32,000 bases of DNA, from contig NZ_PQWO01000017.1 of NCBI RefSeq assembly GCF_003231495.1, positions 1-32,000 on the forward strand, in the 5' to 3' direction. Position numbers and translations under genes: made by a program. Below are positions 2,073 through 29,255 of the stretch, piece by piece. Numbering within the stretch: the stretch's first letter is position 1; each line of letters begins with the position of its first letter. The notes under the pieces were generated by a model. That model ran no database searches, had not been told where the DNA came from, and saw only the letters and a list, made by a program, of their open reading frames with translations. The DNA comes from Acaryochloris thomasi RCC1774. Lineage in GTDB: Bacteria > Cyanobacteriota > Cyanobacteriia > Thermosynechococcales > Thermosynechococcaceae.

Positions 2073-2106
2073 AGCGTTTGACGTGAGAAAACATGAGGCA
2101 ACAATC

Positions 2107-2892: not shown

Positions 2893-2902
2893 GCTGAATC
2901 TC

Positions 2903-4066: not shown

Positions 4067-4106
4067 GACACCTGTTCGTTATGGGATAAAAAGGGTTGAA
4101 TGTGGG

Positions 4107-5219
<1,113 letters not shown>

Positions 5220-6970: not shown

Positions 6971-8074
6971 TTAATTTGCCTCCCCGAGATAGCAGTGACA
7001 ATCTGGCTTCTCAATCAACGAAGCCGCCAGCCGATTAAGTACCACTGCCGCCAGCAGGCCACCGCCCAGGGCGCTTTCAGTAGTCACGTAGGGCACCGAT
7101 AACTGCATCAACCGACGCTTGGCCGCTGGCGCATGACTAAACCCAATGGGCAGACCAATGACTAAGGCAGGCCGACCCACTCCCGTCTCGATGGCTTCGC
7201 AAAGTTTCATCAAGACTGATGGCGCGTAACCCACCATCCAGATATTGCCGTCTGTCAAATCCCGCAACCGCTGGTGCCAGCCGTTATCCTGCCAGAACTG
7301 CTGTTCCGCATCGGCGGCACTGTCTATATGGGGATTGTCCAGCAGCGTGGCCCATTGACAGCCTAAATGGGTAAGACGGGGTTGGTCTAGGGCCGCAATC
7401 ACGGCAGGAACGTCCCCCACTATGGTGCAGCCTGCAGATAGAGTCTCACGGGCTGCCTTGATGGCATCGGAACTAAAGCGCACGAAAGTCGCTAGGCTTA
7501 CATCGCCGCAGGCTAACACCAGGTGAGAGAGTACGTCCACTTCAATCTCAGGACGCTGCGAAAGATCGGGCAGCAAGCGAAAGAGAGCCTCCTGGAAGTG
7601 CTCAGGATGATCTGGGACAGCGGCATCGAGCTGCTGCCAAAGATCTTCGGTAAAGGCCGTCGCGGTCTCTGTTTCAGCCGCCAACTGCCGCAACTGTGCC
7701 AGGGCTTCAGCTTGGACAGACTGGCAAGCTTGGTCGCGTCCAATAAATCCCTCTAGAGCCGTAGCAGTCTGCCGGAGCTTGATCATCTGCTGCAAAACGG
7801 TTTGATACTGCTTCTGGAGCTGGTCCAATAAGGGGTCCACCGCCATCGGCTGGGACTGAGCGACTAGCATTTGCTGGATGTGGGAGAGCTGAAACCCCTG
7901 TTGTTTAAGGGCCACAATTCGCTGGAGGCGCTGTATATCGGCTGCGCTGTAGAGGCGATAGTTGCTGTGCGATCGCATCGGCTGGGGCAGCAGTCCAATC
8001 TGGTGATAGTGCCTCACCATCCGGGGGGTCGTGCCGTGACCAACGGATTGCGTCAGTTCTTTAATAGTCAACAT
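6971..8074 (-). CDS. coaR: MerR-family cobalt-responsive regulator fused to a precorrin-8X methylmutase (CbiC/CobH)-like domain, CoaR-like
   Basis: N-terminal MerR HTH (MLTIKELTQSVGHGTTPRMVRHYHQIGLL...YRLYSAADIQRLQRIVALKQQGF). The C-terminal half is CbiC-like (GYAPSVLMKLCEAIE...LVIGLPIGFSHAPAAKRRL...GGGLLAAVVLNRL). The tail has a Cys-His-Cys (KPDCHCY) like the Synechocystis CoaR sensor motif. Start placed at the ATG at 8074; the longer ORF would cross the divergent promoter. Confidence 0.85.
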   Translation of the reverse strand: MLTIKELTQSVGHGTTPRMVRHYHQIGLLPQPMRSHSNYRLYSAADIQRLQRIVALKQQGFQLSHIQQMLVAQSQPMAVDPLLDQLQKQYQTVLQQMIKLRQTATALEGFIGRDQACQSVQAEALAQLRQLAAETETATAFTEDLWQQLDAAVPDHPEHFQEALFRLLPDLSQRPEIEVDVLSHLVLACGDVSLATFVRFSSDAIKAARETLSAGCTIVGDVPAVIAALDQPRLTHLGCQWATLLDNPHIDSAADAEQQFWQDNGWHQRLRDLTDGNIWMVGYAPSVLMKLCEAIETGVGRPALVIGLPIGFSHAPAAKRRLMQLSVPYVTTESALGGGLLAAVVLNRLAASLIEKPDCHCYLGEAN

Positions 8075-8078
8075 ACCC

Positions 8079-8110
8079 TTGACCTTAACATCAATGTCAA
8101 GGTTTACCCT
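8079..8110 (+). promoter_or_regulatory. MerR-type operator-promoter of coaT: TTGACC -35, 20-bp spacer with a dyad, TACCCT -10
   Basis: The sequence is cTTGACCTTAACATCAATGTCAAGGTTTACCCT. The dyad ACCTTnACAT-nn-ATGTnAAGGT occupies 8082-8103. The over-long spacer (8085-8104) is the hallmark of MerR-activated promoters, and the layout resembles the CueR/ZntR boxes of E. coli copA/zntA. Confidence 0.75.
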
Positions 8111-8140
8111 GAGGAAGCTGTTAATGCTAAGGCTGCCCTG

Positions 8141-10111
8141 ATGGAGAATGTGACACAACTGAGGTTTCCACAACAGGGCCGGATTCCATCTTGGTTTAAA
8201 ACCTATCCTGCCGTCGCAACGGCTGCGCTGTGTGCCCTGCTAACGCTGCTGGGCTGGTTGGCGTTAGTGGCCGGGCAGGTGGGCGGGGCCGTCTGGATCT
8301 TGTTGATTGCCTACGGCATTGGGGGTTATGAAAGCGCTCGTGAAGGGTTAACGACCCTGTGGCAAGAACGGGAATTAGATGTCGATCTATTGATGATTGT
8401 GGCGGCTCTGGGGGCGGCCACCTTGGGGCTATGGCAGCGGGAGTATTATTTGCTGGTGGATGGGGCAATTTTGATCTTAATCTTTGCCATCAGCGGAGCC
8501 TTAGAAGATATTGCCCTCCAGCGCACCGAGCGCAATATTCGGAGCCTGATGCAGCTCACTCCAGATACCGCTTGGCGGTGGCAAGGCGGTCAAACGCAGC
8601 GGATCAAAACGCAGCAGTTGCAGGTGGGCGATCGCATCCTGATCAAACCGGGCGAACTCATTCCCACGGACGGTGTGGTCCAGACTGGCAGCAGTACGGT
8701 GAATCAGGCGACGTTAACCGGCGAGTCGATTCCAGTGGAGAAAGGCATTGGGGATGAAGTCTTCGGGGGCACCCTCAACGGCAGTGGAGCGATCACGGTC
8801 GAGCTGCACCAGCCCCCAGAGAGCAGCCTGATTCAGCGAGTGATCCGCTTAGTGGAGCAGGCCAAAACCTCGCAGCCGCGATCTCAATTATTTTTAGAAA
8901 AATTCGAGCGGGGCTATGCCCGCCTGATTGTCGGCGTCGGGTTGCTCCTGGCAATAATGCCGCCCCTCTTGCTGGCCTGGAGTTGGGAAACCACTATCTA
9001 CCGAGCCTTGATTTTTCTGGTGGTGGCCTCCCCCTGCGCCCTAATGGCGGCGATTATGCCCACCTTACTCTCTGGGATTGCTCAGGGGGCACGACAGGGG
9101 ATTCTATTTAAAGATGGTGCTCAGTTGGAAACGATGGGGCGAATTGAGGCGATCGCCTTCGATAAAACCGGCACCCTAACCACGGGCGTTCTGCAGGTCA
9201 GCGATCTAGTGCCTGCTGCAGGCGTCGCCGCGAATCATGTGCTACAGGTGGCGGCTTCCCTAGAGGCTTATTCCGAGCATCCCATTGCGGATGCGATTGT
9301 GGCTGAGGCCCAACAGCAGGGACTGTCGCTTTTGTCAGCCAATGCTGTTCAAGCTGCGATAGGTCAGGGCATTGTCGGTCATCTAGCCGGAACCCTAACC
9401 CGGATCGGTAAACCTCAGTTTGTCACGGCAGATCTGTCCGAAACGGCAGACTCTCATCTGCTTCAGGCCAGCCATCAGCTAGAAGCCACCGGCAAAACCG
9501 TGATCTGGGTCACGGAGCAGCAGCACTTGATCGGACTTTTGGCCGTCGCCGATCAGATACGTCCCCAAGCCGCTCAAGTCTTAGCTATCCTCAAGCAACT
9601 GGGAATTGCGACGGTGATTCTGACGGGGGATAATGCCGCCACCGCTCAGACCCTTGCCCAACTTGTGGCGGTAGAAGCCGTCTACGCCGATTTACTACCG
9701 GAGGACAAAGTAGATGCCATTGAAAAACTCCAGCAGCAGTACGGCACCGTGGCGATGGTGGGGGATGGCATTAACGATGCTCCGGCTCTGGCTCAAGCCT
9801 CGGTGGGCATTGCGATGGGGACGACGGGCAGTGATGTAGCTTTAGAGACGGCGGATGTGGTGTTGATGGGCGATCGTTTAGAGAAACTCACGCAGGCGAT
9901 TGGTATTGGAGCCAAGTCTCAACGGATTGTCAAACAGAATATTGCTCTAGCGCTGACCTCTATTGCCCTGTTGATGGTAGCTAACTTCTTTGGTGAACTG
10001 ACCTTGCCTGCTGGGGTGCTGGGGCACGAGGGGGCAACGTTGTTGGTAACGCTCAATGGCTTGCGATTACTGAGAACCGATGCCGCTATCGCCTCTATAT
10101 CTTACTTGTAG
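8141..10111 (+). CDS. coaT: P1B-4-type heavy-metal (cobalt) exporting ATPase, CoaT-like
   Basis: SPC motif in a TM helix (LVVASPCALMAA), DKTGTLT phosphorylation site, GDGINDAPAL, and HEGATLLVTLNGLRLL in the last TM helix. No N-terminal HMA domain. Start placed at the ATG at 8141 (MENVTQL), downstream of the MerR-type promoter; the track ORF start at 7871 is inside coaR. Confidence 0.85.
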   Translation: MENVTQLRFPQQGRIPSWFKTYPAVATAALCALLTLLGWLALVAGQVGGAVWILLIAYGIGGYESAREGLTTLWQERELDVDLLMIVAALGAATLGLWQREYYLLVDGAILILIFAISGALEDIALQRTERNIRSLMQLTPDTAWRWQGGQTQRIKTQQLQVGDRILIKPGELIPTDGVVQTGSSTVNQATLTGESIPVEKGIGDEVFGGTLNGSGAITVELHQPPESSLIQRVIRLVEQAKTSQPRSQLFLEKFERGYARLIVGVGLLLAIMPPLLLAWSWETTIYRALIFLVVASPCALMAAIMPTLLSGIAQGARQGILFKDGAQLETMGRIEAIAFDKTGTLTTGVLQVSDLVPAAGVAANHVLQVAASLEAYSEHPIADAIVAEAQQQGLSLLSANAVQAAIGQGIVGHLAGTLTRIGKPQFVTADLSETADSHLLQASHQLEATGKTVIWVTEQQHLIGLLAVADQIRPQAAQVLAILKQLGIATVILTGDNAATAQTLAQLVAVEAVYADLLPEDKVDAIEKLQQQYGTVAMVGDGINDAPALAQASVGIAMGTTGSDVALETADVVLMGDRLEKLTQAIGIGAKSQRIVKQNIALALTSIALLMVANFFGELTLPAGVLGHEGATLLVTLNGLRLLRTDAAIASISYL

Positions 10112-10260
10112 GGCTGAAGTTGCGATCGCAACTCAACAGTGACTTGCTGCGAACGTCAGGATTGGCCTCTCGGGAGCATCGGGTTCTTGCCCTTTTGTCT
10201 GACAATGCCTCACGAGATATAGCATTTGGTTCATGTGCTATATCTGACAACTTTAACTTT

Positions 10261-10306
10261 CAGAGATAGCACCACATCGACTGCCACAACGCAGAACAAA
10301 GACTTA
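10261..10306. repeat. 46-bp dispersed repeat, copy 1 (CAGAGATAGCACCACATCGACTGCCACAACGCAGAACAAAGACTTA)
   Basis: Matches 25554-25599 at about 39 of 46 positions, including an identical 17-mer ACATCGACTGCCACAAC. Both copies lie shortly downstream of the last gene of a plus-strand unit. Confidence 0.7.
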
Positions 10307-10419
10307 GCGGATTAAGCTCAGAGGCGCTGACCAGAACGGCTGAATTTGAAGCTTCCAACTCTTGTCTAGAAATTTCGCAGAACGATTCAGCGTCCCTTAC
10401 AGCGTGTAGTTATGTAGTG

Positions 10420-11061
10420 TCACGATACCCTGCGAAAAATATATAGAGGAGCTGTTTTAGTATAGCCAACCCCTCGACCTAATCCATGTAGAGATTCTCG
10501 AGTGATGGAAGTTTTGCCTTTTGGAACAAAATAAGCCTCTAAAGCAGAATATGAAATGCGGTATTTACCTTTATCTCTATGTACGGTAGCTATGAGCTTA
10601 TAGTCTTTATCAAGTGCCGCTAGACCTGCGTCAGCATGACTATTGTTCACCAACAGTAATCCGTCTATGTTGAGATAAGCTTTGCAAGCCTCTGAAATAA
10701 AACCCGCATACTGAGAGATTAGTAAATCACAAGAATCTATAAGCTCGCTATGTATCTTACTGTAGTCCGCGCCGTAAAACGTGACACTGGGTGCCTCTTT
10801 GTATTGTTTGCGGTGCTGGATGAGTGCCTGTACTTGTTCTTCTTGAAAGAATAGTTTGGCATTCTTATCTGAATCAATATAGGTAACAGTTTGAAAGACA
10901 AAAGAAGGTGAAACATGGACGAAGCTTCCAGGATAAATTACGCTACTGATTCCAAACTCACTTTTTAGTAGTTGAAACAAATCTAATTGCTCGTAATCCC
11001 TGTCAATATAGTATTTTTGATAGGTTTGAAGAGCATCTTTTGCTCGACTCATAATAGACAC
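10420..11061 (-). CDS. Hypothetical protein in a visibly AT-rich segment (possibly methyltransferase-like fold; function not supported)
   Basis: Uninterrupted 213-codon ORF with no competing ORF. Its composition differs from the neighbours and it contains no HIP1 site. I recognise no diagnostic motif. Confidence 0.5.
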   Translation of the reverse strand: MSIMSRAKDALQTYQKYYIDRDYEQLDLFQLLKSEFGISSVIYPGSFVHVSPSFVFQTVTYIDSDKNAKLFFQEEQVQALIQHRKQYKEAPSVTFYGADYSKIHSELIDSCDLLISQYAGFISEACKAYLNIDGLLLVNNSHADAGLAALDKDYKLIATVHRDKGKYRISYSALEAYFVPKGKTSITRESLHGLGRGVGYTKTAPLYIFRRVS

Positions 11062-11153
11062 AATGCTACATAACGGTAGACATCACCGGGTGGCGGCGAA
11101 CGACTTGCAAGCAGACGAAAAAATAACCACCGCCACTCCGGTGCATGTCATGG

Positions 11154-11381
11154 TTATCCGCCGTCTTTGGTCATCATGTTGGCAAACCGACGGGTTAGTT
11201 CGTCAGTGATCAGATGGTCGCGTTTGGTCATGATTAACCAAGTGTGGCCAGACAGATCAGTTAGTGTTCCCCGTCGGTCGCCATCAAATTGGTCCGTCGG
11301 TGGCGATACCGATGTCGCGCCAGCAGTCAGCCCGGTAGCGAAAGTAGCGTCGTCAGCGATCAGATATGGGGTTGCCGTCAT
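11154..11381 (-). pseudogene. Short VOC/glyoxalase (PhnB-like) remnant
   Basis: The 75-aa ORF keeps an N-terminal TPYLI and a C-terminal FDGDRRGTLTDLSGHTWLIMT, reminiscent of VOC-family proteins. It is about half the usual length, suggesting internal deletion. It is preceded by repeat copy B. Confidence 0.35.
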
Positions 11382-11410
11382 TGTTGCTATCGTTTGGTCG
11401 TGTGAACTTC

Positions 11411-11476
11411 AGTCGGATAACTATAATTATACGAATAGCGGCTGATAACTCTGGTAAGAAGGGTATTCTCCGCCAG
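11411..11476 (-). repeat. Dispersed repeat family, copy B (short)
   Basis: AGTCGGATAACTATAATTATACGAATAGCGGCTGATAACTCTGGTAAGAAGGGTATTCTCCGCCAG aligns with 6689-6747 and 27147-27209. On the minus strand it contains a perfect TATAAT. It lies 30 nt upstream of the ATG at 11381. Confidence 0.75.
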
Positions 11477-11501
11477 ACTTTCGGTTTTGGTACCGTTTGG
11501 A

Positions 11502-13163
11502 TCATGTACGCTCAATCCAGTACCCTGCCCATGCCAATACCAGGGAAAAAACCATCGCAGCCACAGCCTGTCGCCCCATCAAAATTAGTGCAAACCGGAG
11601 TGACTGTTCGCGGGCAATGGTGAGGGCCGTGACGAGGCAAGGCAACAATACACCGGCCAGATAGACCCCTGTAAGAATTTGTAGCGGTGTGAGGACCGAG
11701 AGGGTATCAACCTCAGCAAAGAGTAGCAGGCCATCTTTACGAATAGAGGCCAGGATTATGGGTAAAGCAGCATCCGACGGGAGATGAAAGATGCCCATCA
11801 GGGGATGAAGAATGGTTGCCAAAGCAGTCAGGAGATTCCACTCGTCTAAAACGGATGCGATTAAGGTAATGGCGACAAAAATGGGAATCGCAGTCGTAAA
11901 AAACTGGTAGAGGGTTCCTTGGGCTTCTCGCCAGATCGCGACTAGGCGTGGCCGTTCTAAAAAGGTACGGTGTTCAATCATCAGGCTGTTCTGAAGAGAG
12001 CGAGCCGACTTGGGCGCAATCAAGCGTGTGTAGACTAAGGTTGTTGAAGTCAGATAAACCAGGTAAGGAATCGCCAAGTAGGGCATGTTGGCTGCACTAA
12101 ACACCCCCAGCGTGGCCCCCAATTGATAGGAACAGGCTGAGCCAAAGGCGATCGCCGAGATGCAAGTTTTGCGAGCGCAGCTAGAACAGGCACGGGTACT
12201 GATCACCGCTGGGACGTTACAGCCAAACCCCATCATGACTCGCACCAGATCCCGGCCAGATAGGCCAAAGGGGCGCAACAGCGGATGCAGAGCGACTGTG
12301 ATCCGTTCGACCAAGCCACTGGCTTTGTAAGTGCCCAGAAATAGGGCATACAGAATGACCGTTGGCACAGCCCAGACAAACAGGAGCGGCCCCATCGTCA
12401 GCAAGCCGTAGCGTCCGATCAGCATGGCTTCAGGTAGAGGGAGTAAGCCCGTCAGAGCGTCGATGAGGGGCTTGATCAGCCATTGCACTAGGGGATCGGC
12501 GATCGCAGCAAAGCGATTGGCAAACCCAACCGCCAGCATGGCAGGCAAAAAAAGGAGCAAAATCGCAACGAGCCAACCGACGCGCGGATGCTCCAAAATG
12601 GTGGGCTGGGGTTCAATCCGCCATCCGGCAGGGTGCGGTTGCCATTGGTAAGGAAAGGCCGACGGTGCAGAGAGACTTGCGACTATTTCATGACGCTGCG
12701 TGCGGGTCAAATTTCTCGCGTTCACCGGCATAAACTCTAAATGAGAAGCCTGCTTCCAGTCACGAACAACCGAATGGGTGAACCCAGAACTCGCAATTTT
12801 ATCCCAAAACGTGATCACAACAATGCCGAGCTTCCCTGCAACCAAAGGCCATAAATCCGCCAGATCTTCATCAACATGCGTTGCTTTAACCACCAGCAGC
12901 ACAACGTCATGGATTTGTAATTGCGCCAGGGCCGCTTGCGTTGTGGCTCGATCAGAGCGGTACAAAATACCGGGCGTATCCACAAAGGTCATCCCATCTC
13001 TGACATAGGTTTCACAGGCAATAGTAGAACCGCGAAAGTTGCTGCTATAGGGCGAACATCCGGTCAGGGCGGCAATCAGTTGAGATTTGCCCGTATTCTC
13101 TTTACCAATAACGACGATAGAGCGCTGGACTGGAGGGGTAAGCAGGGGCATGGCAGGCAGCAA
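11502..13163 (-). CDS. FeoB-family GTPase-coupled metal transporter (N-terminal G domain plus polytopic gate/nucleoside-recognition membrane domain)
   Basis: G1 motif VVIGKENTGKS, G3 motif FVDTPGI, followed by about 10 hydrophobic segments. It is the third gene behind the Zur box at 14816. No FeoA-like ORF is adjacent. Confidence 0.75.
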   Translation of the reverse strand: MLPAMPLLTPPVQRSIVVIGKENTGKSQLIAALTGCSPYSSNFRGSTIACETYVRDGMTFVDTPGILYRSDRATTQAALAQLQIHDVVLLVVKATHVDEDLADLWPLVAGKLGIVVITFWDKIASSGFTHSVVRDWKQASHLEFMPVNARNLTRTQRHEIVASLSAPSAFPYQWQPHPAGWRIEPQPTILEHPRVGWLVAILLLFLPAMLAVGFANRFAAIADPLVQWLIKPLIDALTGLLPLPEAMLIGRYGLLTMGPLLFVWAVPTVILYALFLGTYKASGLVERITVALHPLLRPFGLSGRDLVRVMMGFGCNVPAVISTRACSSCARKTCISAIAFGSACSYQLGATLGVFSAANMPYLAIPYLVYLTSTTLVYTRLIAPKSARSLQNSLMIEHRTFLERPRLVAIWREAQGTLYQFFTTAIPIFVAITLIASVLDEWNLLTALATILHPLMGIFHLPSDAALPIILASIRKDGLLLFAEVDTLSVLTPLQILTGVYLAGVLLPCLVTALTIAREQSLRFALILMGRQAVAAMVFSLVLAWAGYWIERT

Positions 13164-13198
13164 GAGAACAGGGCAATCTACAATTTTTCAGCAGGGCC

Positions 13199-14320
13199 TT
13201 AGCAGATACAGTCGTTGTCACAGCACGATAGGTCATCTAGAAACAGTCCTGACTGGCGGTAGGTTTCTAATGGCGCAGGATCAATGCCTAAACGGAGGGC
13301 GATCGCATGGGCCACCACCGCAAACCGCTGCCGGAACTTATAGATAAAGCAAAAAATCAGACCAGGATGACGCACTGAAGGGCCAACCACAAACAGACCA
13401 GGGGTGCGGGTAGACTCATCTTGCTCGTTCAAGACGGCATGATTCTCCGACCAGTGGAACAGCGGGGCAATTTGCTTCAAGCTGGTCTCAAAACCCGTAC
13501 AGAGAATGGGGGGATGCACCGTCAGCCATTTCTGGTATTCGCTGTAGACGGCATAGCCCCCTGGCATTTTTTTGACTTCGCCAATGGAGACATTGCTGAG
13601 CAGTTCGAGACGGCCCGTTTGATGGGCCAACCTCAGGCGCTGCAGCGTATAGGGTGACAATGAAACACTCGGATCCGTCTCCTGGCTACCCCACACCCCA
13701 GTCCGATCTAAAACCCTGACTTTTTTCCCTAAGGCGACTAAATGGGTCGCGGCATCCATACCACTTTCATAGCCGCCGATGATCGTAAATTCATCCCCTG
13801 GCAAATTGGACCAAGAGCGAATCTGGGAATTGTGAATGCAGTGGTCTGCGCCCAAAAATGGATTTAACTTTGGGTATTGGAATTCTCCAGCGGCCCAGAT
13901 CACAAACTGGGTTGTGAAGTCCCCGCCAGAAGTTTTTAGAATGAACCCGCGACACTGAGAGAGGGGTTCAATTGCTAAAACATCTGTTTCTGTCTGCACA
14001 GGCAACTGGAAGTGATCCACCACTGTTTGTAGGTAGAGCGCATACTGCTGGCCATTGATATGCTCTCGTCGAAAGGCGAGCGCTGGAGATGTTTTCAGGG
14101 TGATGGCATTGAGGTCGAGTAGGCCAAAACCATGACTCGGAAACGAGGGGGTAATCAAGTTCATCTCCACTGGCCAGCGGCTAAAGGAGGCTCCCACCTG
14201 CAGCCGATCCACCAGGATAAAGTTGTCCAGGCCCAGCTCCCGCAACGCAACAGCGCAACCCACCCCAGCAGGTCCAGCACCGACGATCACGACATCATAG
14301 AAAGAAGTTGATTGAGTCAT
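13199..14320 (-). CDS. FAD/NAD(P)-binding oxidoreductase (pyridine-nucleotide-disulfide / flavin monooxygenase-like)
   Basis: N-terminal dinucleotide fold YDVVIVGAGPAGVGCAVAL and a second Rossmann-like motif FTIIGGYESGMDAATHL. It lies between the DUF1636-like gene and the FeoB-like gene, with gaps of 20 and 35 nt. Confidence 0.7.
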   Translation of the reverse strand: MTQSTSFYDVVIVGAGPAGVGCAVALRELGLDNFILVDRLQVGASFSRWPVEMNLITPSFPSHGFGLLDLNAITLKTSPALAFRREHINGQQYALYLQTVVDHFQLPVQTETDVLAIEPLSQCRGFILKTSGGDFTTQFVIWAAGEFQYPKLNPFLGADHCIHNSQIRSWSNLPGDEFTIIGGYESGMDAATHLVALGKKVRVLDRTGVWGSQETDPSVSLSPYTLQRLRLAHQTGRLELLSNVSIGEVKKMPGGYAVYSEYQKWLTVHPPILCTGFETSLKQIAPLFHWSENHAVLNEQDESTRTPGLFVVGPSVRHPGLIFCFIYKFRQRFAVVAHAIALRLGIDPAPLETYRQSGLFLDDLSCCDNDCIC

Positions 14321-14340
14321 GGAATATTGTTCGGATACGA

Positions 14341-14733
14341 TTACAGGCTAGGACAGGGAATCCTTGCTAAAATCCCCTTCTGCATTGACTCTGGACGACT
14401 TTGACGGGGAACGATACCATCTGAGCTGGAGTGATATTGGTGGGCCAGTTGCAAAACGGCTGCCGCACTGTGCAGAGGCAGCATGTCACCAAACATTAAG
14501 GTGGTTTTCCCTGCTGCTGCTAGGGCAATGGTGCAGGAGCGATCGCAAGCACTTAGATAGTTCACCGCTTCGATCTTGAACTCAAGGGGGAGGGGCCACT
14601 GCTCCTGAAGCCGCAGTAAATTGCTGAGCAGGTGATAGCCACCGCGTTGTCCTACGTAGTCTCGTTGGGTACGCGAGAAGACACAGGACCGACAGACGAA
14701 TAGAGCGTGTTGAGCCATAATGGGCACTGCCAT
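14341..14733 (-). CDS. DUF1636-like predicted metal-binding protein (Cys pairs CRSC and CDRSC)
   Basis: HALFVCRSCVFS ... YLSACDRSCTIAL ... TLMFGDM matches my recollection of the DUF1636 family often found beside cobW genes. It is the first gene behind the Zur box at 14816. The start could be M1 or M6. Confidence 0.6.
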   Translation of the reverse strand: MAVPIMAQHALFVCRSCVFSRTQRDYVGQRGGYHLLSNLLRLQEQWPLPLEFKIEAVNYLSACDRSCTIALAAAGKTTLMFGDMLPLHSAAAVLQLAHQYHSSSDGIVPRQSRPESMQKGILARIPCPSL

Positions 14734-14815
14734 ACTGAAACGCTATGGGTGATCGCTAGCGAGATTATCCACCCGGAATGGATTGAACCGTTTGTACAAA
14801 ATCCTATACTTAAAA

Positions 14816-14832
14816 ATGATAATCATTCTCAT
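14816..14832. promoter_or_regulatory. Zur box (ATGATAATCATTCTCAT) upstream of the DUF1636-flavoprotein-FeoB-like operon
   Basis: Same palindrome family as 5142, 21396 and 27691. It lies 83 nt upstream of the ATG at 14733. Confidence 0.7.
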
Positions 14833-15148
14833 TGTCTTTAGCCACCCGACTTTCTTGCTCTCACAACCTGATAGCAGATGCGCCTCTGAGTTTGAATAGC
14901 GAGGAGGGTGCACAGTTTTTGTTGCGGATGCGAGGGGCTGAGATTTGCGATCGCACTTAGCTTGGCTCTGCTGCTGAGCGATTTGCTAAGACAGATATTA
15001 CGGCCTATCCGTTGATGGGAGAGGTGTTGGCGTAGTATCTGGATCAGATTGTGAATGTCACTTTGCCATGCGATGCAGGTAGTGTGCGAAATGGCCCGTT
15101 AGTTTTTGAATGCTAGGATCAGGCTAGCTCCTAAGTGCGAAAGATCTC

Positions 15149-15376
15149 ATGCTAACTTTGAATCAGCTTATTTCAGAGGCGACTGCCTTACCCGATACAG
15201 ACAAAGCAGTCCTCATAGACAAAGTTGTGGAAAGCATGGAAGAGCGAGTTGACCGGGACGTTTTGAGCCAGGGAATCCAGACAGCTCAAGACCGCATCGC
15301 TGAGATTGAGAGCGGTGCAGTCCAAGCTATTCCCGGAGATATTGCTTTAGCACAGGTTCGGCAACGCTTAGGGTAA
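15149..15376 (+). CDS. Type II antitoxin (putative addiction module component family)
   Basis: A 75-aa acidic protein (MLTLNQLISEATALPDTDKAVLIDKVVESM...IESG). Its TAA stop overlaps the ATG of the downstream toxin by 1 nt (TAATG). Confidence 0.7.
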   Translation: MLTLNQLISEATALPDTDKAVLIDKVVESMEERVDRDVLSQGIQTAQDRIAEIESGAVQAIPGDIALAQVRQRLG

Positions 15377-15666
15377 TGAAATATGAATTCCACCCAGCAG
15401 CCCTGCAAGAATATGCAGAGGCTGTAGAGTTTTTTGCCCAAAAAGACCGGCATCAGGATTTCATCGACATCATAGAAAGTTCAATATTTCGGGTTATTTC
15501 AGCACCAGAACGCTGGCCGGTTGTTCAAGGTGAGATTCGTCGTTATTTGACCCCCAAGTTTTCCTATGCCATCTTGTATCGAGTCTTTTCAGATAGAGTC
15601 GTAATTGCCGCAGTCATGAGTTGTCGTAGAGATCCCAATTATTGGCAAGATCGTTTGGAATCGTAA
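15376..15666 (+). CDS. Type II toxin, RelE/ParE superfamily
   Basis: A 96-aa protein (MKYEFHPAALQEYAEAVEFF...RRYLTPKFSYAILYRV...VVIAAVMSCRRDPNYW), which is the typical ParE/RelE plasmid-stabilisation pattern. It is translationally coupled to the upstream antitoxin. Confidence 0.75.
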   Translation: MKYEFHPAALQEYAEAVEFFAQKDRHQDFIDIIESSIFRVISAPERWPVVQGEIRRYLTPKFSYAILYRVFSDRVVIAAVMSCRRDPNYWQDRLES

Positions 15667-15967
15667 AGACCACCTCACTTGCTCCACGGTTCCCCCTGTA
15701 CACATCGTCCCCGCTTAATAAAAGCCAGAATTGCCCGCACAGTCACCTAACGTTCCACGCCAAGTAAACCTGATGCCTAAGAAAGGCCGTTTATTTGAAA
15801 CACAGTGAACCACAGAATGATAACCTTAGGGCCAGATTTATACGACTTCTGATTGATAATGCCCTTATCTCGGAGTCATCCGATTCTTGGCAGATAATAT
15901 CCTTCCAACCGGATTTATCAACCACCATCCATATAATCGTAGTTAGAGCTTCAATTGGAGAGCAGGA

Positions 15968-17221
15968 ATGGGCCGATATACCAAAGTCGACCTAGCATAC
16001 GAATTCTTGGTGGCCAAGGAGAAGCAAGACGAATCCTTTACTGTTCAACAACTATCCGAAGCAACCGGGTGGGCTGTCGTAACATGCAAAAATTATTTAT
16101 CAAAGCGTTGGCATCAGTATTTAGAAAGGGATGGAGATCAGTATTCAAGCGAAGCTATATTATTTCTAAGCAAAGAAGATTTTCAGGCTCTTCATTCTCA
16201 AAAGCTTCAACAAACTACCGACCTTTCCACGAGGGGAATGCTGATTCATAAAGCAAGGGAATTCGCCTTGCTTGCTGTCTCCGTATACAACAATCCATTC
16301 ACTAAATTCAAAACGTATGGGTTCATTGTAAATATTGTCGTCGCCTATGTTGCATTGTTTCATGCGATATTCGAGAAACGGGGAATCTGTTGCTCGCATC
16401 TTGATGCAGGCGGACATCCAGTACTTATTGACGGAGACGAGAAAGTCTGGGAGTTATCAGAGTGTGTACGTGAATATTGGAAAGGAGTAACAAGCCCAGT
16501 CGCAGCTAACCTACGCTTCCTAACTGGGCTTAGGAACAAAATTGAACACCGGAGTCTACCAGCTATTGACCTTGCGGTCGCTGGGGAGTGTCAGGCTGCA
16601 CTGGCGAACTTCGAAGATCTCCTCGTACAAGAGTTTGGTGATGAACACGCTCTGATAGCAGATCTGGCGATTGCCATGCAGCTTAGTAGAATTTCTGAGC
16701 AGGCACAGATTGACACACTAAAGCAGCTACAGAAGGAGAACTACAGAGTAGTTAAGGAGTACATGGAAACGTACCGGAACGATCTCGACGATGAGGTTGT
16801 CCAGAGTCAGAAATACCGTATTCGAGCATTCCTCGTTCCAAAACTTGGAAATCATGCAACAAGCAGCGATATTGCTATCGAATTTATCAACGTCAACGAA
16901 TTGTCTGAAGACGAACTTGCTAACTATGAACAAGGGGTGGCCTTCATAAAGGGAATTGAAAATCCCTACAAGCTTAGACCGACCAAAGTTATTGAACTTG
17001 TAAGGGAAAAAAGAGCGAGCTTCAATATGACCATGCACACGAAGTCTTGGAAGTACTATAAAGCTCGACCTCGTGAGCTGCAAAAGGGCTTTCGAGGGAA
17101 ATACTGTAGCTTTATCGAGGGATTCGATGGCTATCTCTATTCCAAGCACTGGGTGAACTTTCTTGTCAGTGAACTCGCGTCAGAAGAAACGATGACTTCA
17201 ATCAAAGCACAGGCTATTTAG
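15968..17221 (+). CDS. HEPN-motif protein (DUF3644/Abi-like), candidate defence or toxin RNase
   Basis: Exact RNxxxH motif RNKIEH at aa 189-194 (nt 16532-16549). It follows a helical segment LLAVSVYNNPFTKFKTYGFIVNIVVAYVALFHAIFEKRG that resembles DUF3644-type HEPN families. The gene is AT-richer, contains no HIP1, and is flanked by two TA pairs. Confidence 0.6.
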   Translation: MGRYTKVDLAYEFLVAKEKQDESFTVQQLSEATGWAVVTCKNYLSKRWHQYLERDGDQYSSEAILFLSKEDFQALHSQKLQQTTDLSTRGMLIHKAREFALLAVSVYNNPFTKFKTYGFIVNIVVAYVALFHAIFEKRGICCSHLDAGGHPVLIDGDEKVWELSECVREYWKGVTSPVAANLRFLTGLRNKIEHRSLPAIDLAVAGECQAALANFEDLLVQEFGDEHALIADLAIAMQLSRISEQAQIDTLKQLQKENYRVVKEYMETYRNDLDDEVVQSQKYRIRAFLVPKLGNHATSSDIAIEFINVNELSEDELANYEQGVAFIKGIENPYKLRPTKVIELVREKRASFNMTMHTKSWKYYKARPRELQKGFRGKYCSFIEGFDGYLYSKHWVNFLVSELASEETMTSIKAQAI

Positions 17222-17522
17222 AGATAAAGATGGTGTCTAGAACAACCGCAAAGAAATCAGTCCACATTGGATACTCACGAGATCGAGCGCAGGCCAGCTC
17301 TAATAAGCGGTTGCAGCAGACGAAAATTCCGCTATGTGAAATTTTTGCGTCTGTACCAAAACGTTAGATATCAGCCATCCAAAAACTCAATTAAGTGACC
17401 AAGTGTTGTGGTTGATGTCGGCGGAAAACGCGATCGCTATCTTGAACAAGTTGCTTACGACAACATGCATAACGACGGATCGATAGCATAGATAAAACTC
17501 TTGGTCAAAGCTGTGCAGATTG

Positions 17523-17840
17523 CTAGCACTTCGCAACAGAAATCTTTTCAGGAGTCAATCGATATCCCAGGGCATTGAGAATAGCATTCACACTTTCAAA
17601 TTTTGGACTTCCCTCGATTGATAGCGCTTTTTGCAATCCTTTCCGTGACATCCCCGCAGCCGCAGCAGTTGCGGTGATCCCCTTTGCTCGGGCGATGGTT
17701 CGTAGAGACGCAAGCAAAGCTCCGATATCACCATCTTGAGCATAGTCTTCAAAGAGAATAGAGAGATATTCATCTATTTCTTCAGGATGTTGCTGGAAAT
17801 ATTCAGCTTCTAGCTGATCAAGGGTTCTCAGTTGTCGCAT
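17523..17840 (-). CDS. HigA-type antitoxin (addiction module antidote protein, HTH)
   Basis: LRTIARAKGITATAAAAGMSRKGLQKALSIEGSPKFESVNAILNALGYRL is the typical HTH pattern of antidote proteins encoded downstream of killer proteins. It overlaps the upstream toxin ORF by 23 nt. Confidence 0.75.
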   Translation of the reverse strand: MRQLRTLDQLEAEYFQQHPEEIDEYLSILFEDYAQDGDIGALLASLRTIARAKGITATAAAAGMSRKGLQKALSIEGSPKFESVNAILNALGYRLTPEKISVAKC

Positions 17841-18201
17841 TGGTTAAATACTCCTTCCAGTAAGCTTGAGCCGTTTTAACATCAAGATTCTGAGTACTTT
17901 TGTCGCCGCCACAAAGCAAAATGACGAGCGTTGGGCCATTTTCGCCAAAGTAAACTCGATATCCAGGCCCGAAGAATAGTCTGAGTTCATAGACTCCACC
18001 CCCTAAAGCTTTGCAATCACCATAGTTACCTTGTTCGAGACGACGTAGACGACTCAAGATCCGCTTGCGACCCACCGTATCCCGAAGACTTGTAAGCCAT
18101 TGGCTGAAAGGCTCTTGACCTAATGCGTCTGCATAGACAAGGATCTGTTTCGGTAGTGAGGAGTTGGACAAGCTTCTATCAGAGTGCGTACCACAGTACA
18201 C
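17818..18201 (-). CDS. HigB/RelE-like toxin (addiction module killer protein family)
   Basis: FSQWLTSLRD...RILSRLRRLEQGNYGDCKALGGGVYELRLFFGPGYRVYFGENGPTLVILLCGGDKSTQNLDV is the characteristic killer-protein pattern. The toxin-first gene order is as in higBA. The true start may be downstream of the listed ATG. Confidence 0.75.
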   Translation of the reverse strand: MYCGTHSDRSLSNSSLPKQILVYADALGQEPFSQWLTSLRDTVGRKRILSRLRRLEQGNYGDCKALGGGVYELRLFFGPGYRVYFGENGPTLVILLCGGDKSTQNLDVKTAQAYWKEYLTNATTENP

Positions 18202-18282: not shown

Positions 18283-18924
18283 TCAAGACCTAGCGGCCCT
18301 ATGGCCTTCGTGCAGTGTAGCAATACAGGCAGAATCATCTGCACAGTGATAGCCCGCCAATAAGGCTCGATTGACTTCCACTACGTGATGAGAAAACTGA
18401 TGATCGACGGTCTTGGCATCGGGTAGCCGATCAGCGTCAGCTTGATGGATAATGACAGCCCCTGATCCGACATATTTCCCGGTTGGGATCTCCACGTCTT
18501 GGATCAGCGCATGCATCATCACAACACAATGATCACCCACCTTGGCATTAAACACTGTTGATCGAAAGCCAATGAAGCAGTCATTACCAATATAGGCAGG
18601 TCCGTGAATCAAGGCCATGTGGGTAATGCAGGTATTTTCGCCAATCCAGACCGAATAGGGCTGATGATCATCGCCTCTGACCCGCCCCTGTTCTAAGCCA
18701 TGAATAACCACACCATCCTGGATATTGGTGTTCGCACCGATATAAAAGGGCATGCCCTCGTCTGCTCGAATGGAAGTGCCGGGTGCAATCAATACCTGTT
18801 GACCCAAGCGAACATCTCCGATCAAACTTGACGAGGGATGCACGTAAGCTGACGGATCCATTTGGGGTTGGTCTAGCCCTCGATCCCAAGGTGTCGGGGG
18901 CGAAGGCTGCTGGCGTAGGGGCAT
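18283..18924 (-). CDS. Stand-alone gamma-class carbonic anhydrase-like protein (left-handed beta-helix), resembling the N-terminal domain of CcmM
   Basis: Hexapeptide-repeat sequence with candidate metal-ligand histidines (VVIHG at H75; THMALIHG at H102/H107). The C-terminal helix carries Cys194 and Cys200 ([10 protein letters not shown]). No RbcS-like repeats follow. It is the last gene of the thrS-hisI string. Confidence 0.75.
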
Positions 18925-18959
18925 TTTTTACTCCACAGGTTTAAATTCAAGTGAACCCA

Positions 18960-19445
18960 TCAAAGCTGTGTCGGATTGGGGGTATCCCCATAGATCAGTT
19001 GAGGGTCAAAGGTTTTTGCGGTTTCTGTAAAGGTCAATGTAATGGGATAGTTTTCCCTCACCGCTTCCGTTCCCAAAGGAATTTGACGATAAAAACAAGA
19101 TCGATACCCCACATGGCAACTGGCTCCAGAGTCTGCAACAGTCACCCGCATCCAAAGGCAGTCTTGATCATCATCAATCAGCAATTGCTGGACGTATTGG
19201 ATCAAGCCACTGGTCGCGCCTTTGTGCCAGAGGGTCTGACGACTGCGGCTGTAGTAATGGGCTTCTCCGGTTTCGATAGTTTTGACCAAGGCGGCCTGAT
19301 TCATATAGGCATGCATCAATAGTTCGCCTGTCTGGGCATCGGTTGTCACAACAGGAATTAAGCCCGCTTGATTAAATTTGGGCGCGAGGGACGTGCCTTC
19401 TTCGACAGCTTCTACACAGGTGCGATCCGCAAATAGAGTCGTCAT
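18960..19445 (-). CDS. hisI: Phosphoribosyl-AMP cyclohydrolase, monofunctional HisI paralog
   Basis: [48 protein letters not shown]...DCLWMRV....[10 protein letters not shown] is the canonical HisI pattern including the Cys/His metal-ligand positions. There is no HisE domain. Confidence 0.85.
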
Positions 19446-19505
19446 GGTAAACCTCGGTGATCACGATGGATGGAAACAGATACAGCTTTCATCAGTTCTC
19501 CTGAT

Positions 19506-21356
19506 CTAAATCTTTTGTTTAGCGTCAATGGCTGACTGCATTTTTTCGTACAGGTCACAGAGCGTTAACGGTCCCTGCTCTCCTGCCTGTCGGGTGCGAA
19601 TACTGAGGGTCTGGTTTTCCACTTCTCGCTTGCCCACGACCGCCACAACAGGAATTTTTTCTAGGGCAGCCAAACGAATTTGTTTCCCTAGACGCTCGCC
19701 GCTCCTATCGACCTCAGCTCGCCAGCCTTTCTGCGTAAGCTGGTTTAAGACTTCAAAGGCATACTCTTGCTGGGCATCACTGACGGTTAGCAATCGAATC
19801 TGCGTCGGCGCTAACCACAGCGGGAAATCCCCGGCATAGTTCTCGATCAAGATGCCAAAGAACCGCTCTAGCGATCCAAAAATGGCTCGATGGATCATGA
19901 TCGGGCGCTGCCGTGATCCGTCTGCGGCCACGTATTCCATCTCGAAGCGCTCTGGCAAGTTGAAATCGACTTGAATGGTGGAACATTGCCACAGCCGCCC
20001 GATCGCATCTCGAATCTTCAGATCGATTTTGGGACCATAGAACGCGCCGCCGCCCTCATCCGTGAGGTAATCCCAACCCTTACGCTCCAGGGCTGTGCTC
20101 AATGCCTGGGTGGCTAAGTCCCAAATGTCATCGCTGCCGACGGATTTGTCAGGCCGGGTTGAGAGGTTGATTTCATAATCGCTAAAGCCAAAGTCAGACA
20201 GCACCTTTTCGGTGAGATTCAGGACGGCCAAAATCTCATCCGCCACCTGATCAGGCAGACAAAAGACGTGGGCGTCATCTTGAGTAAAGCCCCTGACCCG
20301 CATCAGTCCATGCAGTGTCCCGGAGCGTTCGTAACGATAGACCGTTCCCAGCTCGGCCCACCGTAGGGGAAACTCTCGATAGGAGTGGAGTTCATGCTGG
20401 TAGGTGAGCACATGAAAGGGGCAGTTCATCGGCTTGATCTGATAATCCTGAGTTTCCACCGCCATTTGATCAAACATGCTGTCGCGGTAGAACTCAAAAT
20501 GGCCGGACGTTTTCCAGAGATCAAGATTGGCGATGTGGGGCGTATAGAGTAGCTCATACCCTGCTGCTAAATGTGCCTGCCGCCAGTAGTCTTCGATGAT
20601 GTGGCGAATCCTGGCCCCGCGAGGATGCCAAAAGACCAGCCCCCCTCCAGCAGCCTCTTCAATACTGAACAGCTTCAGTGTCTTTCCCAAAAGACGGTGA
20701 TCTCGGCGCTGAGCCTCTTCTTTTTGGTGTAGGTAGGCTTTTAACTGCTTTGGAGTTTCCCAGGCGGTTCCATAGATCCGCTGCAGTTGAGCTTGGGTTT
20801 CATCGCCACGCCAATAAGCTCCAGCGACACTTTCGAGCATGAATGCCTTTGAATGCAGCTCGCCTGTACTGTTGAGATGGGGACCCGAGCACAGATCCCA
20901 CCAAAATTCATCAGGGGCCACTGACAACGGAGCAATCAGCGAGGCTTCCGCCTCTGGATGCTGTGTCCGGCCTGTGTCAGGACTGCCAATGAAATAGCGG
21001 GTAATCGCTTCCTCTGCAGGAATCTGGGCCAATATTTCTAATTTGTAGGGTTCTTGCAACTGTTCTAGTTCAGCCGTCATCTGATCGCGATCCACTTGTT
21101 CGCGGATGATGGGCAAATTGGCCTTGATGATGCGCCGCATCTGAGTTGCGATCGCATCCAGATCCTCTGGCGTAAAAGCCTGGGCACGGTCAAAGTCATA
21201 GTAGAAACCTGTCTCAGTCGTTGGACCAATCGTCACCTTTGTCTCAGGAAACAGATGCTGCACCGCCATAGCCATCACATGAGCGCAGGTGTGGCGAAGT
21301 CGCTGTAGCTGTTCGGTGGAATTAGGCGCTGACAGCGTACGAGAAACGGTAGACAT
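19506..21356 (-). CDS. thrS: Threonyl-tRNA synthetase paralog lacking the N-terminal TGS domain
   Basis: Begins 20 aa before the editing-domain RHTCAH motif (E. coli has about 68 aa before RHSCAH). The catalytic Zn-ligand contexts are retained (PMNCPFH, FTQDDAHVFC, IMIHRAIFGSLERF). The divergent folE starts only 143 nt upstream, which is too little room for a TGS domain. Confidence 0.9.
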   Translation of the reverse strand: MSTVSRTLSAPNSTEQLQRLRHTCAHVMAMAVQHLFPETKVTIGPTTETGFYYDFDRAQAFTPEDLDAIATQMRRIIKANLPIIREQVDRDQMTAELEQLQEPYKLEILAQIPAEEAITRYFIGSPDTGRTQHPEAEASLIAPLSVAPDEFWWDLCSGPHLNSTGELHSKAFMLESVAGAYWRGDETQAQLQRIYGTAWETPKQLKAYLHQKEEAQRRDHRLLGKTLKLFSIEEAAGGGLVFWHPRGARIRHIIEDYWRQAHLAAGYELLYTPHIANLDLWKTSGHFEFYRDSMFDQMAVETQDYQIKPMNCPFHVLTYQHELHSYREFPLRWAELGTVYRYERSGTLHGLMRVRGFTQDDAHVFCLPDQVADEILAVLNLTEKVLSDFGFSDYEINLSTRPDKSVGSDDIWDLATQALSTALERKGWDYLTDEGGGAFYGPKIDLKIRDAIGRLWQCSTIQVDFNLPERFEMEYVAADGSRQRPIMIHRAIFGSLERFFGILIENYAGDFPLWLAPTQIRLLTVSDAQQEYAFEVLNQLTQKGWRAEVDRSGERLGKQIRLAALEKIPVVAVVGKREVENQTLSIRTRQAGEQGPLTLCDLYEKMQSAIDAKQKI

Positions 21357-21395: not shown

Positions 21396-21412
21396 ATGAT
21401 AATGATTATCAT
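21396..21412. promoter_or_regulatory. Zur box (ATGATAATGATTATCAT) in the divergent thrS / folE intergenic region
   Basis: The best palindrome of the five. It lies 40 nt from the thrS ATG (21356) and 88 nt from the folE ATG (21500), so it is positioned to control both divergent operons. Confidence 0.8.
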
Positions 21413-22135: not shown

Positions 22136-22162
22136 TGAAACTCTCTTATTCAGGACTGAGCG

Positions 22163-23143: not shown

Positions 23144-23147
23144 TTTT

Positions 23148-27678: not shown

Positions 27679-27707
27679 TTGATATAGTGAATGATAATCA
27701 TTATCAT
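27679..27707 (+). promoter_or_regulatory. Promoter (TTGATA-N17-TATCAT) overlapped by a Zur box (ATGATAATCATTATCAT, 27691-27707) upstream of sufE-like/COG0523
   Basis: The -35-like TTGATA is at 27679-27684, followed by a 17-nt spacer and a -10-like TATCAT at 27702-27707. The palindrome covers the spacer and the -10, which is the classical repressor geometry. It lies 30 nt upstream of the ATG at 27737. Confidence 0.8.
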
Positions 27708-28180: not shown

Positions 28181-28199
28181 CCGCAGACGGAGTCAACCC

Positions 28200-29255
<1,056 letters not shown>

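Follow-up and report, generated by a model that had tools for sequence, protein, structure and literature searches.

How bacteria obtain zinc when a host or the environment restricts its supply is a central theme of their physiology and virulence, and to our knowledge the known routes (ZnuABC/AdcABC, ZupT, metallophores, TonB receptors) include no FeoB-type permease or flavoenzyme. The closest described counterpart of the genes considered here is the Staphylococcus aureus operon HG001_02621-24, annotated as COG0523, ‘iron transporter’ and ‘oxidoreductase’. This operon has a Zur box, is a Zur target predicted in RegPrecise, is more abundant in the Δzur proteome and is induced by calprotectin (PMC13586535, 2026). 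We analyzed a 32,000-nucleotide (nt) stretch of Acaryochloris thomasi RCC1774 (contig NZ_PQWO01000017.1, positions 1 to 32,000; hereafter the window), in which genes for a DUF1636 protein, an NAD(P)H/FAD flavoprotein and a FeoB-subfamily permease lie on the minus strand behind a Zur box (Table 1). An initial annotation had read these genes as a candidate metal-acquisition triad built around a GTPase-gated permease. Zur control and an uncharacterized function held up in our analysis, but the emphasis on a triad and on GTPase gating did not generalize. Judged by gene order across genomes, the conserved unit is the flavoprotein-permease pair and not the triad. What we regard as new is that the zinc-starvation response includes a distinct FeoB subfamily whose partner is almost always a flavoprotein; for S. 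aureus, regulation of the module by Zur was already known.

The S. aureus genes match the window pair in both sequence and arrangement. PDB entry 3D1C, an S. aureus structure, has a sequence 98% identical to P0121, the S. aureus orthologue of the window flavoprotein. It aligned with the window flavoprotein over the full length (E = 1.4e-76) and ends in SCCEVSCTC, so that both proteins carry the same CCx3CxC tail. The next S. aureus gene encodes a 446-amino-acid (aa) Gate protein that is 30% identical to the membrane part of the window permease and has the same C-x2-C-x4-C...FGSxCSYQ signature, and a COG0523 gene follows. In S. aureus, as in the window, the Zur operator lies upstream (AAATCGTAATTATTACGATTT, L088 5933-5953, directly before the flavoprotein). 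The S. aureus operon differs in that its permease has no G domain, a COG0523 gene (ZigA) is part of the operon, DUF1636 is absent and the box is of the Firmicute type. The initial view that no Zur-controlled FeoB-type system had been characterized therefore stands for function, since we found no functional study of the flavoprotein or the permease in the literature searched, but not for regulation, which was already in RegPrecise and in the 2026 S. aureus work (PMC13586535).

The second point of reference is the cyanobacterial Zur regulon of Anabaena PCC 7120 and Synechococcus PCC 7002. It has the operator motif that we found in the window, and it includes the same neighbors, namely znuABC, COG0523 and paralogues of thrS, folE, hemB, hisI and gamma-carbonic anhydrase (gamma-CA) (PMC4628125, PMC10957091). 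In contrast, the flavoprotein-permease pair is unmentioned in the cyanobacterial Zur papers searched. On pLVPK, Haas et al. (2009) indicated the Zur cluster but gave no discussion of the pair.

Zur operators and conservation of the pair

The Zur box that the initial annotation placed ahead of the operon was found, one mismatch from the palindrome TGATAATNATTATCA, with its center 91 nt upstream of the DUF1636 ATG. The 20-mer around this box had six relatives at three or fewer mismatches in the window, compared to none in 100 shuffles, and three further boxes with zero or one mismatch were present (Table 1). Because these other boxes precede recognizable Zur-regulon genes, we regard the window as a zinc-starvation island. 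The operator had been described as the one that controls znuABC. The motif is indeed identical, but the site is distinct, as znuACB has a box of its own at 5143. The three genes probably form a single Zur-repressed operon within this cyanobacterial island, with co-transcription predicted from the sequence.

To place the operon in a wider context, relatives of the permease were collected by tblastn across GTDB species genomes. Relatives were confirmed in 296 species genomes, and the best 80 loci, all cyanobacterial, were used for context. Many cyanobacteria have relatives at 66-94% identity. We observed the flavoprotein gene immediately upstream of the FeoB-like gene and on the same strand in 73 of these 80 loci; most of the other seven end at a contig edge. 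Boxes with two or fewer mismatches were then counted at those loci where 300 nt or more of sequence precede the flavoprotein (n = 65). A box was present within 300 nt in 58 of the 65, at a median distance of 45 nt, compared to an expected 0.04 boxes per 300 nt, a background that still includes genuine boxes of neighboring Zur genes. Frequent neighbors of the pair in the 80 loci were hisI, gamma-CA, thrS, folE, hemB or COG0523 paralogues. Zur control of the pair is well supported by these comparisons, and with it the earlier proposal of a Zur-controlled FeoB-type permease with a flavoprotein partner, which comparative genomics backs strongly and Δzur proteomics backs for the S. aureus orthologues (PMC13586535). 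The proposed triad did not recur. Apart from the window, a single metagenome contig (L093, 78% identical, in the order box, DUF1636, flavoprotein) had DUF1636 directly before the flavoprotein, and DUF1636 is not part of the conserved pair.

The pair extends well beyond cyanobacteria. A tblastn search of plasmids found the two genes side by side on ~499 Klebsiella pneumoniae plasmids and 20 Escherichia plasmids; the pair was also found in Pantoea, in Paenibacillus and, at ~50% identity, in the haloarchaea Haloferax, Halocatena and Haloarcula. By megablast, the Klebsiella version was present in 52 of 5426 complete E. coli genomes, on chromosomes or plasmids. Its occurrence on this many Klebsiella plasmids and on E. 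coli chromosomes or plasmids indicates that the island is horizontally mobile. The carriers are medically and ecologically important: cyanobacteria, Klebsiella virulence plasmids, E. coli, S. aureus (where the operon includes ZigA), bacilli and haloarchaea.

Zur-type boxes precede the module in five lineages, and each bacterial lineage checked has its own operator type. The operator is CGTTATGTTATAACG in Klebsiella (20 nt before the flavoprotein), a perfect TGTTATGTTATAACA in Pantoea (25 nt before the flavoprotein) and TAATCGTAATTATTACGATTA before the Paenibacillus operon. Where gene contexts were annotated, the pair always stood in a zinc-starvation island. The surroundings on the Klebsiella plasmid p56661-276.1 (L081) comprise two Fur-family repressors, COG0523, dksA, folE2, carbonate dehydratase (gamma-CA), zigA and hisI; Pantoea has the same set together with cysS, thrS and 6-carboxytetrahydropterin synthase. 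The gene order is COG0523-rpsN-flavoprotein-permease and then rpmG in Paenibacillus; COG0523, flavoprotein, S14, permease, hisI and ZnuA-like in Haloferax; folE2 and then flavoprotein-permease-COG0523 in Bacillus sp.; and flavoprotein-permease-COG0523 in S. aureus. The 7-nt overlap between the flavoprotein and permease genes in Firmicutes is suggestive of a stoichiometric complex.

Features of the permease, flavoprotein and DUF1636 protein

The domain calls of the initial annotation were backed by Pfam for all three proteins. The permease matched FeoB_N (37.9 bits; cutoff 27), MMR_HSR1 (50 bits) and, in two stretches, Gate (57 bits). Its G motifs are GKENTGKS (G1), T47 (G2), DTPG (G3), TFWD (G4) and NAR (G5-like), and the first four are invariant in both permease alignments. 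The best Foldseek matches of its AlphaFold2 (AF2) model were NFeoB G domains (4r98, 8vwn, 3iby); all structural matches were to G domains, and no solved full-length FeoB was matched. Two cysteines, C315 in GFGCNVP and C509 in the second gate, are invariant even when E. coli FeoB is included. The permease resembles the Fe(II) transporter FeoB (COG0370, TIGR00437) in its N-terminal G domain and in a polytopic domain with two Gate motifs and both of these conserved cysteines.

However, the permease is only 22% identical to E. coli FeoB and ~220 residues shorter. It has no C-terminal tail and no helical S/GDI domain, the latter an 80-90-residue deletion after which the membrane domain starts at about residue 196, in agreement with the AF2 secondary structure. 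Scores against the curated FeoB models were below the equivalog cutoffs (TIGR00437, 95 bits compared to 315.65; NF007105, 36.2 bits compared to 683). Unlike FeoB, the permease comes without FeoA or FeoC, and at the loci examined its partner is almost always a flavoprotein; on the operator evidence it is under Zur instead of Fur, and its G domain is lost in some lineages. It also has an extra CxxC-x4-C after gate 1. Directly after GFGCNVP it reads TR-x-C-S-x-C-x-R-x2-C ... FGSACSYQ, unlike E. coli FeoB. C326-x2-C329 is kept in cyanobacteria, haloarchaea, Paenibacillus, Klebsiella, Pantoea and S. aureus but is absent in E. coli FeoB, and CxxCx4C was present in 119 of 120 cyanobacterial permease homologues. 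A profile search of 1.84 billion representatives returned 183 permease clusters at E ≤ 1e-30, and 599-677-aa two-stretch matches resembling canonical FeoBs started near E = 1e-38. Because the clusters are so few and FeoB-like matches set in at this level, we regard the permease as a small, distinct FeoB subfamily. A 923-aa representative of the permease subfamily (P0260) was considered as a flavoprotein-permease Rosetta-stone fusion and rejected, as its ~410-residue C-terminal extension has no Pfam domain.

The flavoprotein matched Pyr_redox_3 (PF13738) at 322 bits over profile positions 1-305 of 305. Both dinucleotide motifs, VGAGPAG for FAD and GGYESGMDAA for the second, NAD(P)H, site, are conserved. 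C366, C367, C371 and C373, spaced CC-x3-4-C-x-C, are invariant across cyanobacteria, haloarchaea, Firmicutes and Proteobacteria in the alignment, and so is C324. Among full-length Firmicute homologues, 77 of 108 have the CCx3CxC tail, and almost every one of the remaining 31 has a related terminal Cys cluster, most often Cx2Cx3CxC. The nearest characterized relatives (YpdA/Bdr, thioredoxin reductase, ArsO and FMO-type enzymes) are distant and all fall below their family cutoffs. The score was 65.4 bits against TIGR04018, the YpdA bacillithiol-disulfide reductase model (cutoff 339.9), and 54.1 bits against the ArsO model NF040505 (cutoff 425). In size the flavoprotein family exceeds the permease subfamily (1290 matches compared to the 183 representative clusters).

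A related arrangement is known from CzcO-CzcD of Bacillus subtilis, where a Pyr_redox_3/COG2072-type flavoprotein is likewise encoded beside a metal transporter, a comparison drawn from family type and gene context. CzcO is reported to facilitate cation transport by CzcD (PMC12607644). Some homologues of the window flavoprotein are annotated ‘flavoprotein involved in K+ transport’, a legacy label. CzcD, however, is a cation diffusion facilitator (CDF) exporter induced by metal excess, whereas the partner here is a FeoB-type permease that would be induced by a lack of zinc.

We also considered G0132 of Synechococcus PCC 7002, a published Zur-regulated ‘FAD-dependent oxidoreductase’, as an orthologue of the flavoprotein. 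This candidate was rejected, because tblastn found no match and its family is NAD_binding_9. An unrelated ~425-aa ‘FAD/NAD(P)-binding protein’ is also encoded in zinc islands, on PCC 7002 pAQ7 (L086:25590-26855) and in Haloferax (L082:2268-3557). The pAQ7 copy is an NAD_binding_9 protein and is taken as the published G0132; the Haloferax neighbor matches by annotation alone.

The DUF1636 protein matched PF07845 at 122.7 bits (cutoff 31.6) over profile positions 1-116 of 117. It has four cysteines; C63 and C67 are invariant, and every full-length cyanobacterial copy in the alignment also has C14 and C17. It matched PDB 9JN8, an undescribed entry (E = 1.3e-11), and a published homology model assigns the family a thioredoxin-like [2Fe-2S] ferredoxin fold (PMC4520260). 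An exact-sequence look-up and a single-protein metagenome scan with the window protein returned no match. The L012 locus, from a close relative, has DUF1636 in third position in a different operon behind a perfect Zur box, and in another locus (L011) it is divergent from cysS with a Zur box between the two genes. In 80 metagenome loci obtained by an alignment-based scan, the usual place of DUF1636 is after thrS or beside COG0523, again behind Zur boxes. Given its presence in these other Zur-box operons, we regard DUF1636 as an independent cyanobacterial Zur-regulon gene that has joined the pair in this lineage. Distant, apparently non-cyanobacterial loci (31-39% identity, without cyanobacterial Zur boxes) have DUF1636 directly upstream of a CobW-type COG0523 gene. 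The DUF1636 protein may carry electrons or metal for the flavoprotein. The first gene of the L012 operon (L012:1823-3151) encodes a 442-aa protein that contains a TonB-receptor Plug domain and weakly matches thioredoxin-like ferredoxin.

A putative thiolate relay and competing explanations

As the best-supported explanation, we propose that the module is a low-zinc-induced uptake route for Zn2+ or a thiophilic surrogate (Co2+ or Fe2+) that operates via a thiolate relay, a proposal for and against which we find the case evenly balanced. Zur would repress a single transcript, and a lack of zinc would derepress it. The FeoB-subfamily permease would carry a thiophilic divalent cation, most economically Zn2+, over the cytoplasmic membrane, and its thiolates would pass the ion on to the Cys tail of the cytoplasmic flavoprotein by a ligand exchange like that from MerT to MerA. 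Flavin and NAD(P)H would keep the thiols reduced or gate the hand-off. COG0523 chaperones, which are encoded near the module in many genomes, would distribute the metal onward. The thiolate signatures kept across phyla in both the permease and the flavoprotein count in favor of uptake, as does the precedent of CzcO, a flavoprotein that is reported to assist a divalent-cation transporter (PMC12607644). Zinc or a surrogate metal as the substrate is plausible but unproven, and we likewise infer the direction of transport, the relay and the role of the flavin.

The mercury system provides a working analogy only. In MerT/MerP-MerA, a thiophilic metal moves by ligand exchange from a membrane protein with Cys pairs to a pyridine-nucleotide flavoprotein with a vicinal Cys pair at its C-terminus. 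The permease, however, has no MerT homology, the flavoprotein has neither the MerA active-site CxxxxC nor NmerA, and MerA reduces Hg2+, whereas Zn2+ cannot be reduced.

Several observations weigh against uptake. Zn2+ is redox-inert, which leaves the need for a flavoenzyme unexplained. ZnuABC is already encoded in the window, and a recognizable box was missing in 7 of the 65 cyanobacterial loci. The G domain is dispensable, as it is absent in the S. aureus orthologue and in ~10 complete permease representatives; ‘GTPase-gated’ is thus not a general feature of these permeases. The AF2 permease model is weak (16-sequence alignment; predicted local distance difference test (pLDDT) score of 65, with residues 313-342, the Cys motif, below 50), so that no pore geometry was derived from it and the Cys motif is unplaced. 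Paracoccus has a Zur-COG0523-flavoprotein-cysS arrangement with no permease, and in Lactobacillales an Amt-like protein replaces the permease as the partner of the flavoprotein.

The Lactobacillales loci vary in arrangement. Lacticaseibacillus paracasei encodes a short, 366-aa Amt-family protein (L174:547-1647) directly before the flavoprotein, and in Enterococcus faecalis (Amt-like gene, L172:3399-4478) the order is COG0523, COG0523, Amt-like, DCD, flavoprotein and ZnuCBA-like. In Streptococcus iniae the Amt-like gene (L090:4867-5901, minus strand) is divergent from the flavoprotein. Between the two genes, 40 nt upstream of the flavoprotein, lies TTAACTGGTTAA (L090:5951-5962), a perfect match to the AdcR operator consensus. 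Conserved in the Amt-like proteins are the Phe gate, W148, D160 and the first His, but the second twin-His residue is replaced by Asn. These features suggest a zinc-regulated Amt-like protein with a non-ammonium role. As Paracoccus has the flavoprotein but no permease, and as Lactobacillales combine it with an Amt-like protein, the permease may not define the function of the module. The initial annotation had put the permease at the center and the flavoprotein in an accessory role; the flavoprotein proved to be the more constant of the two. With two unrelated membrane partners in evidence, any explanation must accommodate both.

One alternative makes the flavoprotein the functional center, as an NAD(P)H-dependent class-B-type monooxygenase or disulfide reductase that acts on a thiol, a thiolate or a small molecule. 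It could, for example, keep the cysteines of apo-zinc sites or a low-molecular-weight thiol buffer reduced, or release Zn oxidatively from thiolate sites. The membrane protein, FeoB-like or Amt-like, would then supply or remove the substrate or anchor the flavoprotein, and the permease need not carry metal. The Paracoccus locus, the Amt-like partners in L. paracasei, E. faecalis and S. iniae with the AdcR operator of the last, the lost second twin-His residue and the larger size of the flavoprotein family are all consistent with this explanation, and the nearest relatives of the flavoprotein are enzymes of the YpdA, thioredoxin reductase and ArsO/FMO types. However, the permease has a cross-phylum thiolate signature of its own that points to a soft-metal site, and its pairing with the flavoprotein is very tight, as seen in most cyanobacterial loci and in the overlapping genes of Firmicutes. 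The flavoprotein also has no CxxC redox pair near its FAD motif, with only C324 and the tail conserved, and the YpdA, ArsO and thioredoxin reductase (TrxR) equivalog scores are far below cutoff. We consider this alternative unlikely.

Another alternative retains uptake but has the permease import a substitute metal, such as Fe2+ (the ancestral FeoB substrate), Co2+ or Mn2+. This metal would load the co-induced zinc-independent or cambialistic paralogues (gamma-CA, FolE, HisI and HemB), and the flavoprotein would be a metal reductase (of Fe3+ or Co3+) or a thiol keeper. The FeoB family membership of the permease fits this explanation, and a redox enzyme is sensible for Fe or Co but not for Zn. 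Two papers document cobalt substitution under zinc starvation in other bacteria (PMC11340326, PMC13083405), and DUF1636 is the leading gene of cobalamin/CobW operons in Proteobacteria and precedes COG0523 in the distant loci. The operon has a CoaR/CoaT-type cobalt-efflux pair as a neighbor at a distance of 1.4 kb. CoaR/CoaT also lies no more than 8 kb from the flavoprotein-permease pair in L007, L009, L025, L043 and L054, and is found beside DUF1636-COG0523 in L094 and L095; this recurrent proximity is a possible link to cobalt, but it holds for a minority of loci. In addition, no Fur or cobalt-type control was seen, as every lineage checked uses a zinc regulator, the constant neighbors are COG0523 and zinc-sparing paralogues, and the added CxxC-x4-C is unlike the iron-transporting E. 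coli FeoB. Taken together, we judge import of a substitute metal to be rather improbable.

That the permease is an ordinary Fur-controlled Fe(II) FeoB, with a Fur box misread as a Zur box and unrelated neighbors, would agree with the FeoB_N and Gate matches and with the label ‘ferrous iron transport protein B’ in some sources, but it is already contradicted by the low FeoB model scores, by the divergent architecture, by the identical motif before znuACB, thrS/folE-COG0523 and sufE-COG0523 in the window and by derepression of the S. aureus orthologue in Δzur (PMC13586535), which makes it very improbable.

The uptake proposal can be broadened. The Cys-tailed flavoprotein and its membrane partner, either a thiolate-lined FeoB-subfamily permease or, in Lactobacillales, a twin-His-defective Amt-like channel, might constitute a previously unrecognized, near-universal zinc-starvation system of Bacteria and haloarchaea, in which a redox enzyme drives or gates the thiolate-relay import or mobilization of Zn2+ and passes it to COG0523 chaperones. 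We put this forward tentatively and hold it to be unlikely. If true, Klebsiella virulence plasmids and S. aureus would encode a new principle of transport for a metal that is itself redox-inert. The role of the flavoprotein and of the Cys-rich FeoB relative is directly testable, because the 3D1C structure exists and tractable hosts carry the module. The answer could clarify how COG0523 chaperones obtain metal.

Gene calls and neighboring features

The three minus-strand open reading frames (ORFs) of the initial annotation were present at the coordinates, on the strand and with the gaps given there (20 nt between DUF1636 and the flavoprotein; 35 nt between the flavoprotein and the TTG start of the permease). 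The translations also contain its motifs, with CRSC and CDRSC in the protein of 130 aa, VVIVGAGPAGVG in that of 373 aa, and GKENTGKS and DTPG in that of 553 aa. The permease has two candidate starts, TTG at 13163 (553 aa) and ATG at 13151 (549 aa, gap of 47 nt); the ATG is likelier because homologues begin MPLLTP. The absence of a FeoA partner was confirmed, as no FeoA or FeoC domain was found in any ORF scanned around the operon, small ORFs included. An Rfam search at a permissive threshold found no riboswitch or small RNA in 10000-15500 and no element upstream of the operon, and consensus scans for promoters and terminators stayed at chance level.

Table 1. Positions of the operon, its protein features, the Zur boxes and neighboring genes in the window
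Feature	Position	Strand	Evidence or remark
Zur box of the operon, TGATAATCATTCTCA on + strand, TGAGAATGATTATCA on gene strand	14817..14831		one mismatch compared to palindrome TGATAATNATTATCA
DUF1636 protein, 130 aa (C14, C17, C63, C67)	14341..14733	-	Pfam PF07845; first gene of operon, lineage-specific placement
NAD(P)H/FAD flavoprotein, 373 aa, Pyr_redox_3 (two-dinucleotide-binding, FMO/YpdA/CzcO-like group)	13199..14320	-	Pfam, 3D1C, alignment
Flavoprotein C-terminal Cys cluster CCDNDCIC, residues 366-373	13202..13225	-	cross-phylum alignment
FeoB-subfamily GTPase-permease, 553 aa from TTG	11502..13163	-	Pfam, alignments
Permease G domain, residues 14-165	12669..13124	-	invariant alignment columns; Foldseek NFeoB
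Permease polytopic membrane domain, two Gate motifs	11508..12578	-	Pfam Gate; TIGR00437 over residues 199-479; AF2 helices
Permease subfamily signature GFGCNVPAVISTRACSSCARKTCISAIAFGSACSYQ; C315, C326, C329, C334, C344	12126..12227	-	beside Gate motif 1
Separate Zur box	5143..5157		before hemB(paralog)-znuA-znuC-znuB (1236-5126, -)
Perfect Zur box	21397..21411		between thrS-hisI-gamma-CA (-) and folE-COG0523 (+)
Perfect Zur box	27692..27706		before sufE-COG0523 (27737-29255, +)
thrS-hisI and 213-aa gamma-CA/CcmM-N-terminal-like protein	18283-21356	-	one side of box 21397..21411
folE, COG0523, CobW_C-only protein, metallophosphoesterase	21500-24733	+	other side of box 21397..21411
SufE-domain gene	27737-28180	+	after perfect box
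COG0523 gene	28200-29255	+	after SufE-domain gene
CoaR-type regulator	6971-8173	-	MerR HTH and CbiC domain
CoaT-like P-type ATPase	7871-10111	+	divergent from CoaR-type regulator
213-aa ORF	10420-11061	-	no family match; low-GC stretch
75-aa ORF	11154-11381	-
ParE/antitoxin pair	15149-15666
DUF3644 protein	15968-17221
Gp49-like/antidote pair	17523-18201

Downstream of the permease are a 213-aa ORF and a 75-aa ORF. The 213-aa ORF was considered as a member of the module and rejected, as it is conserved beside the pair in no locus; the 75-aa ORF is likewise not conserved with the pair in other loci. The perfect box at 21397 divides two divergent gene sets. Upstream of the operon, between two Zur operons, the region 15149-18201 has a lower GC content (0.44-0.47) and holds the ParE/antitoxin pair, the DUF3644 gene and the Gp49-like/antidote pair; this stretch looks like a mobile insertion. 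The SufE-domain gene follows a perfect box, and a Zur-controlled sulfur-transfer SufE is unusual.

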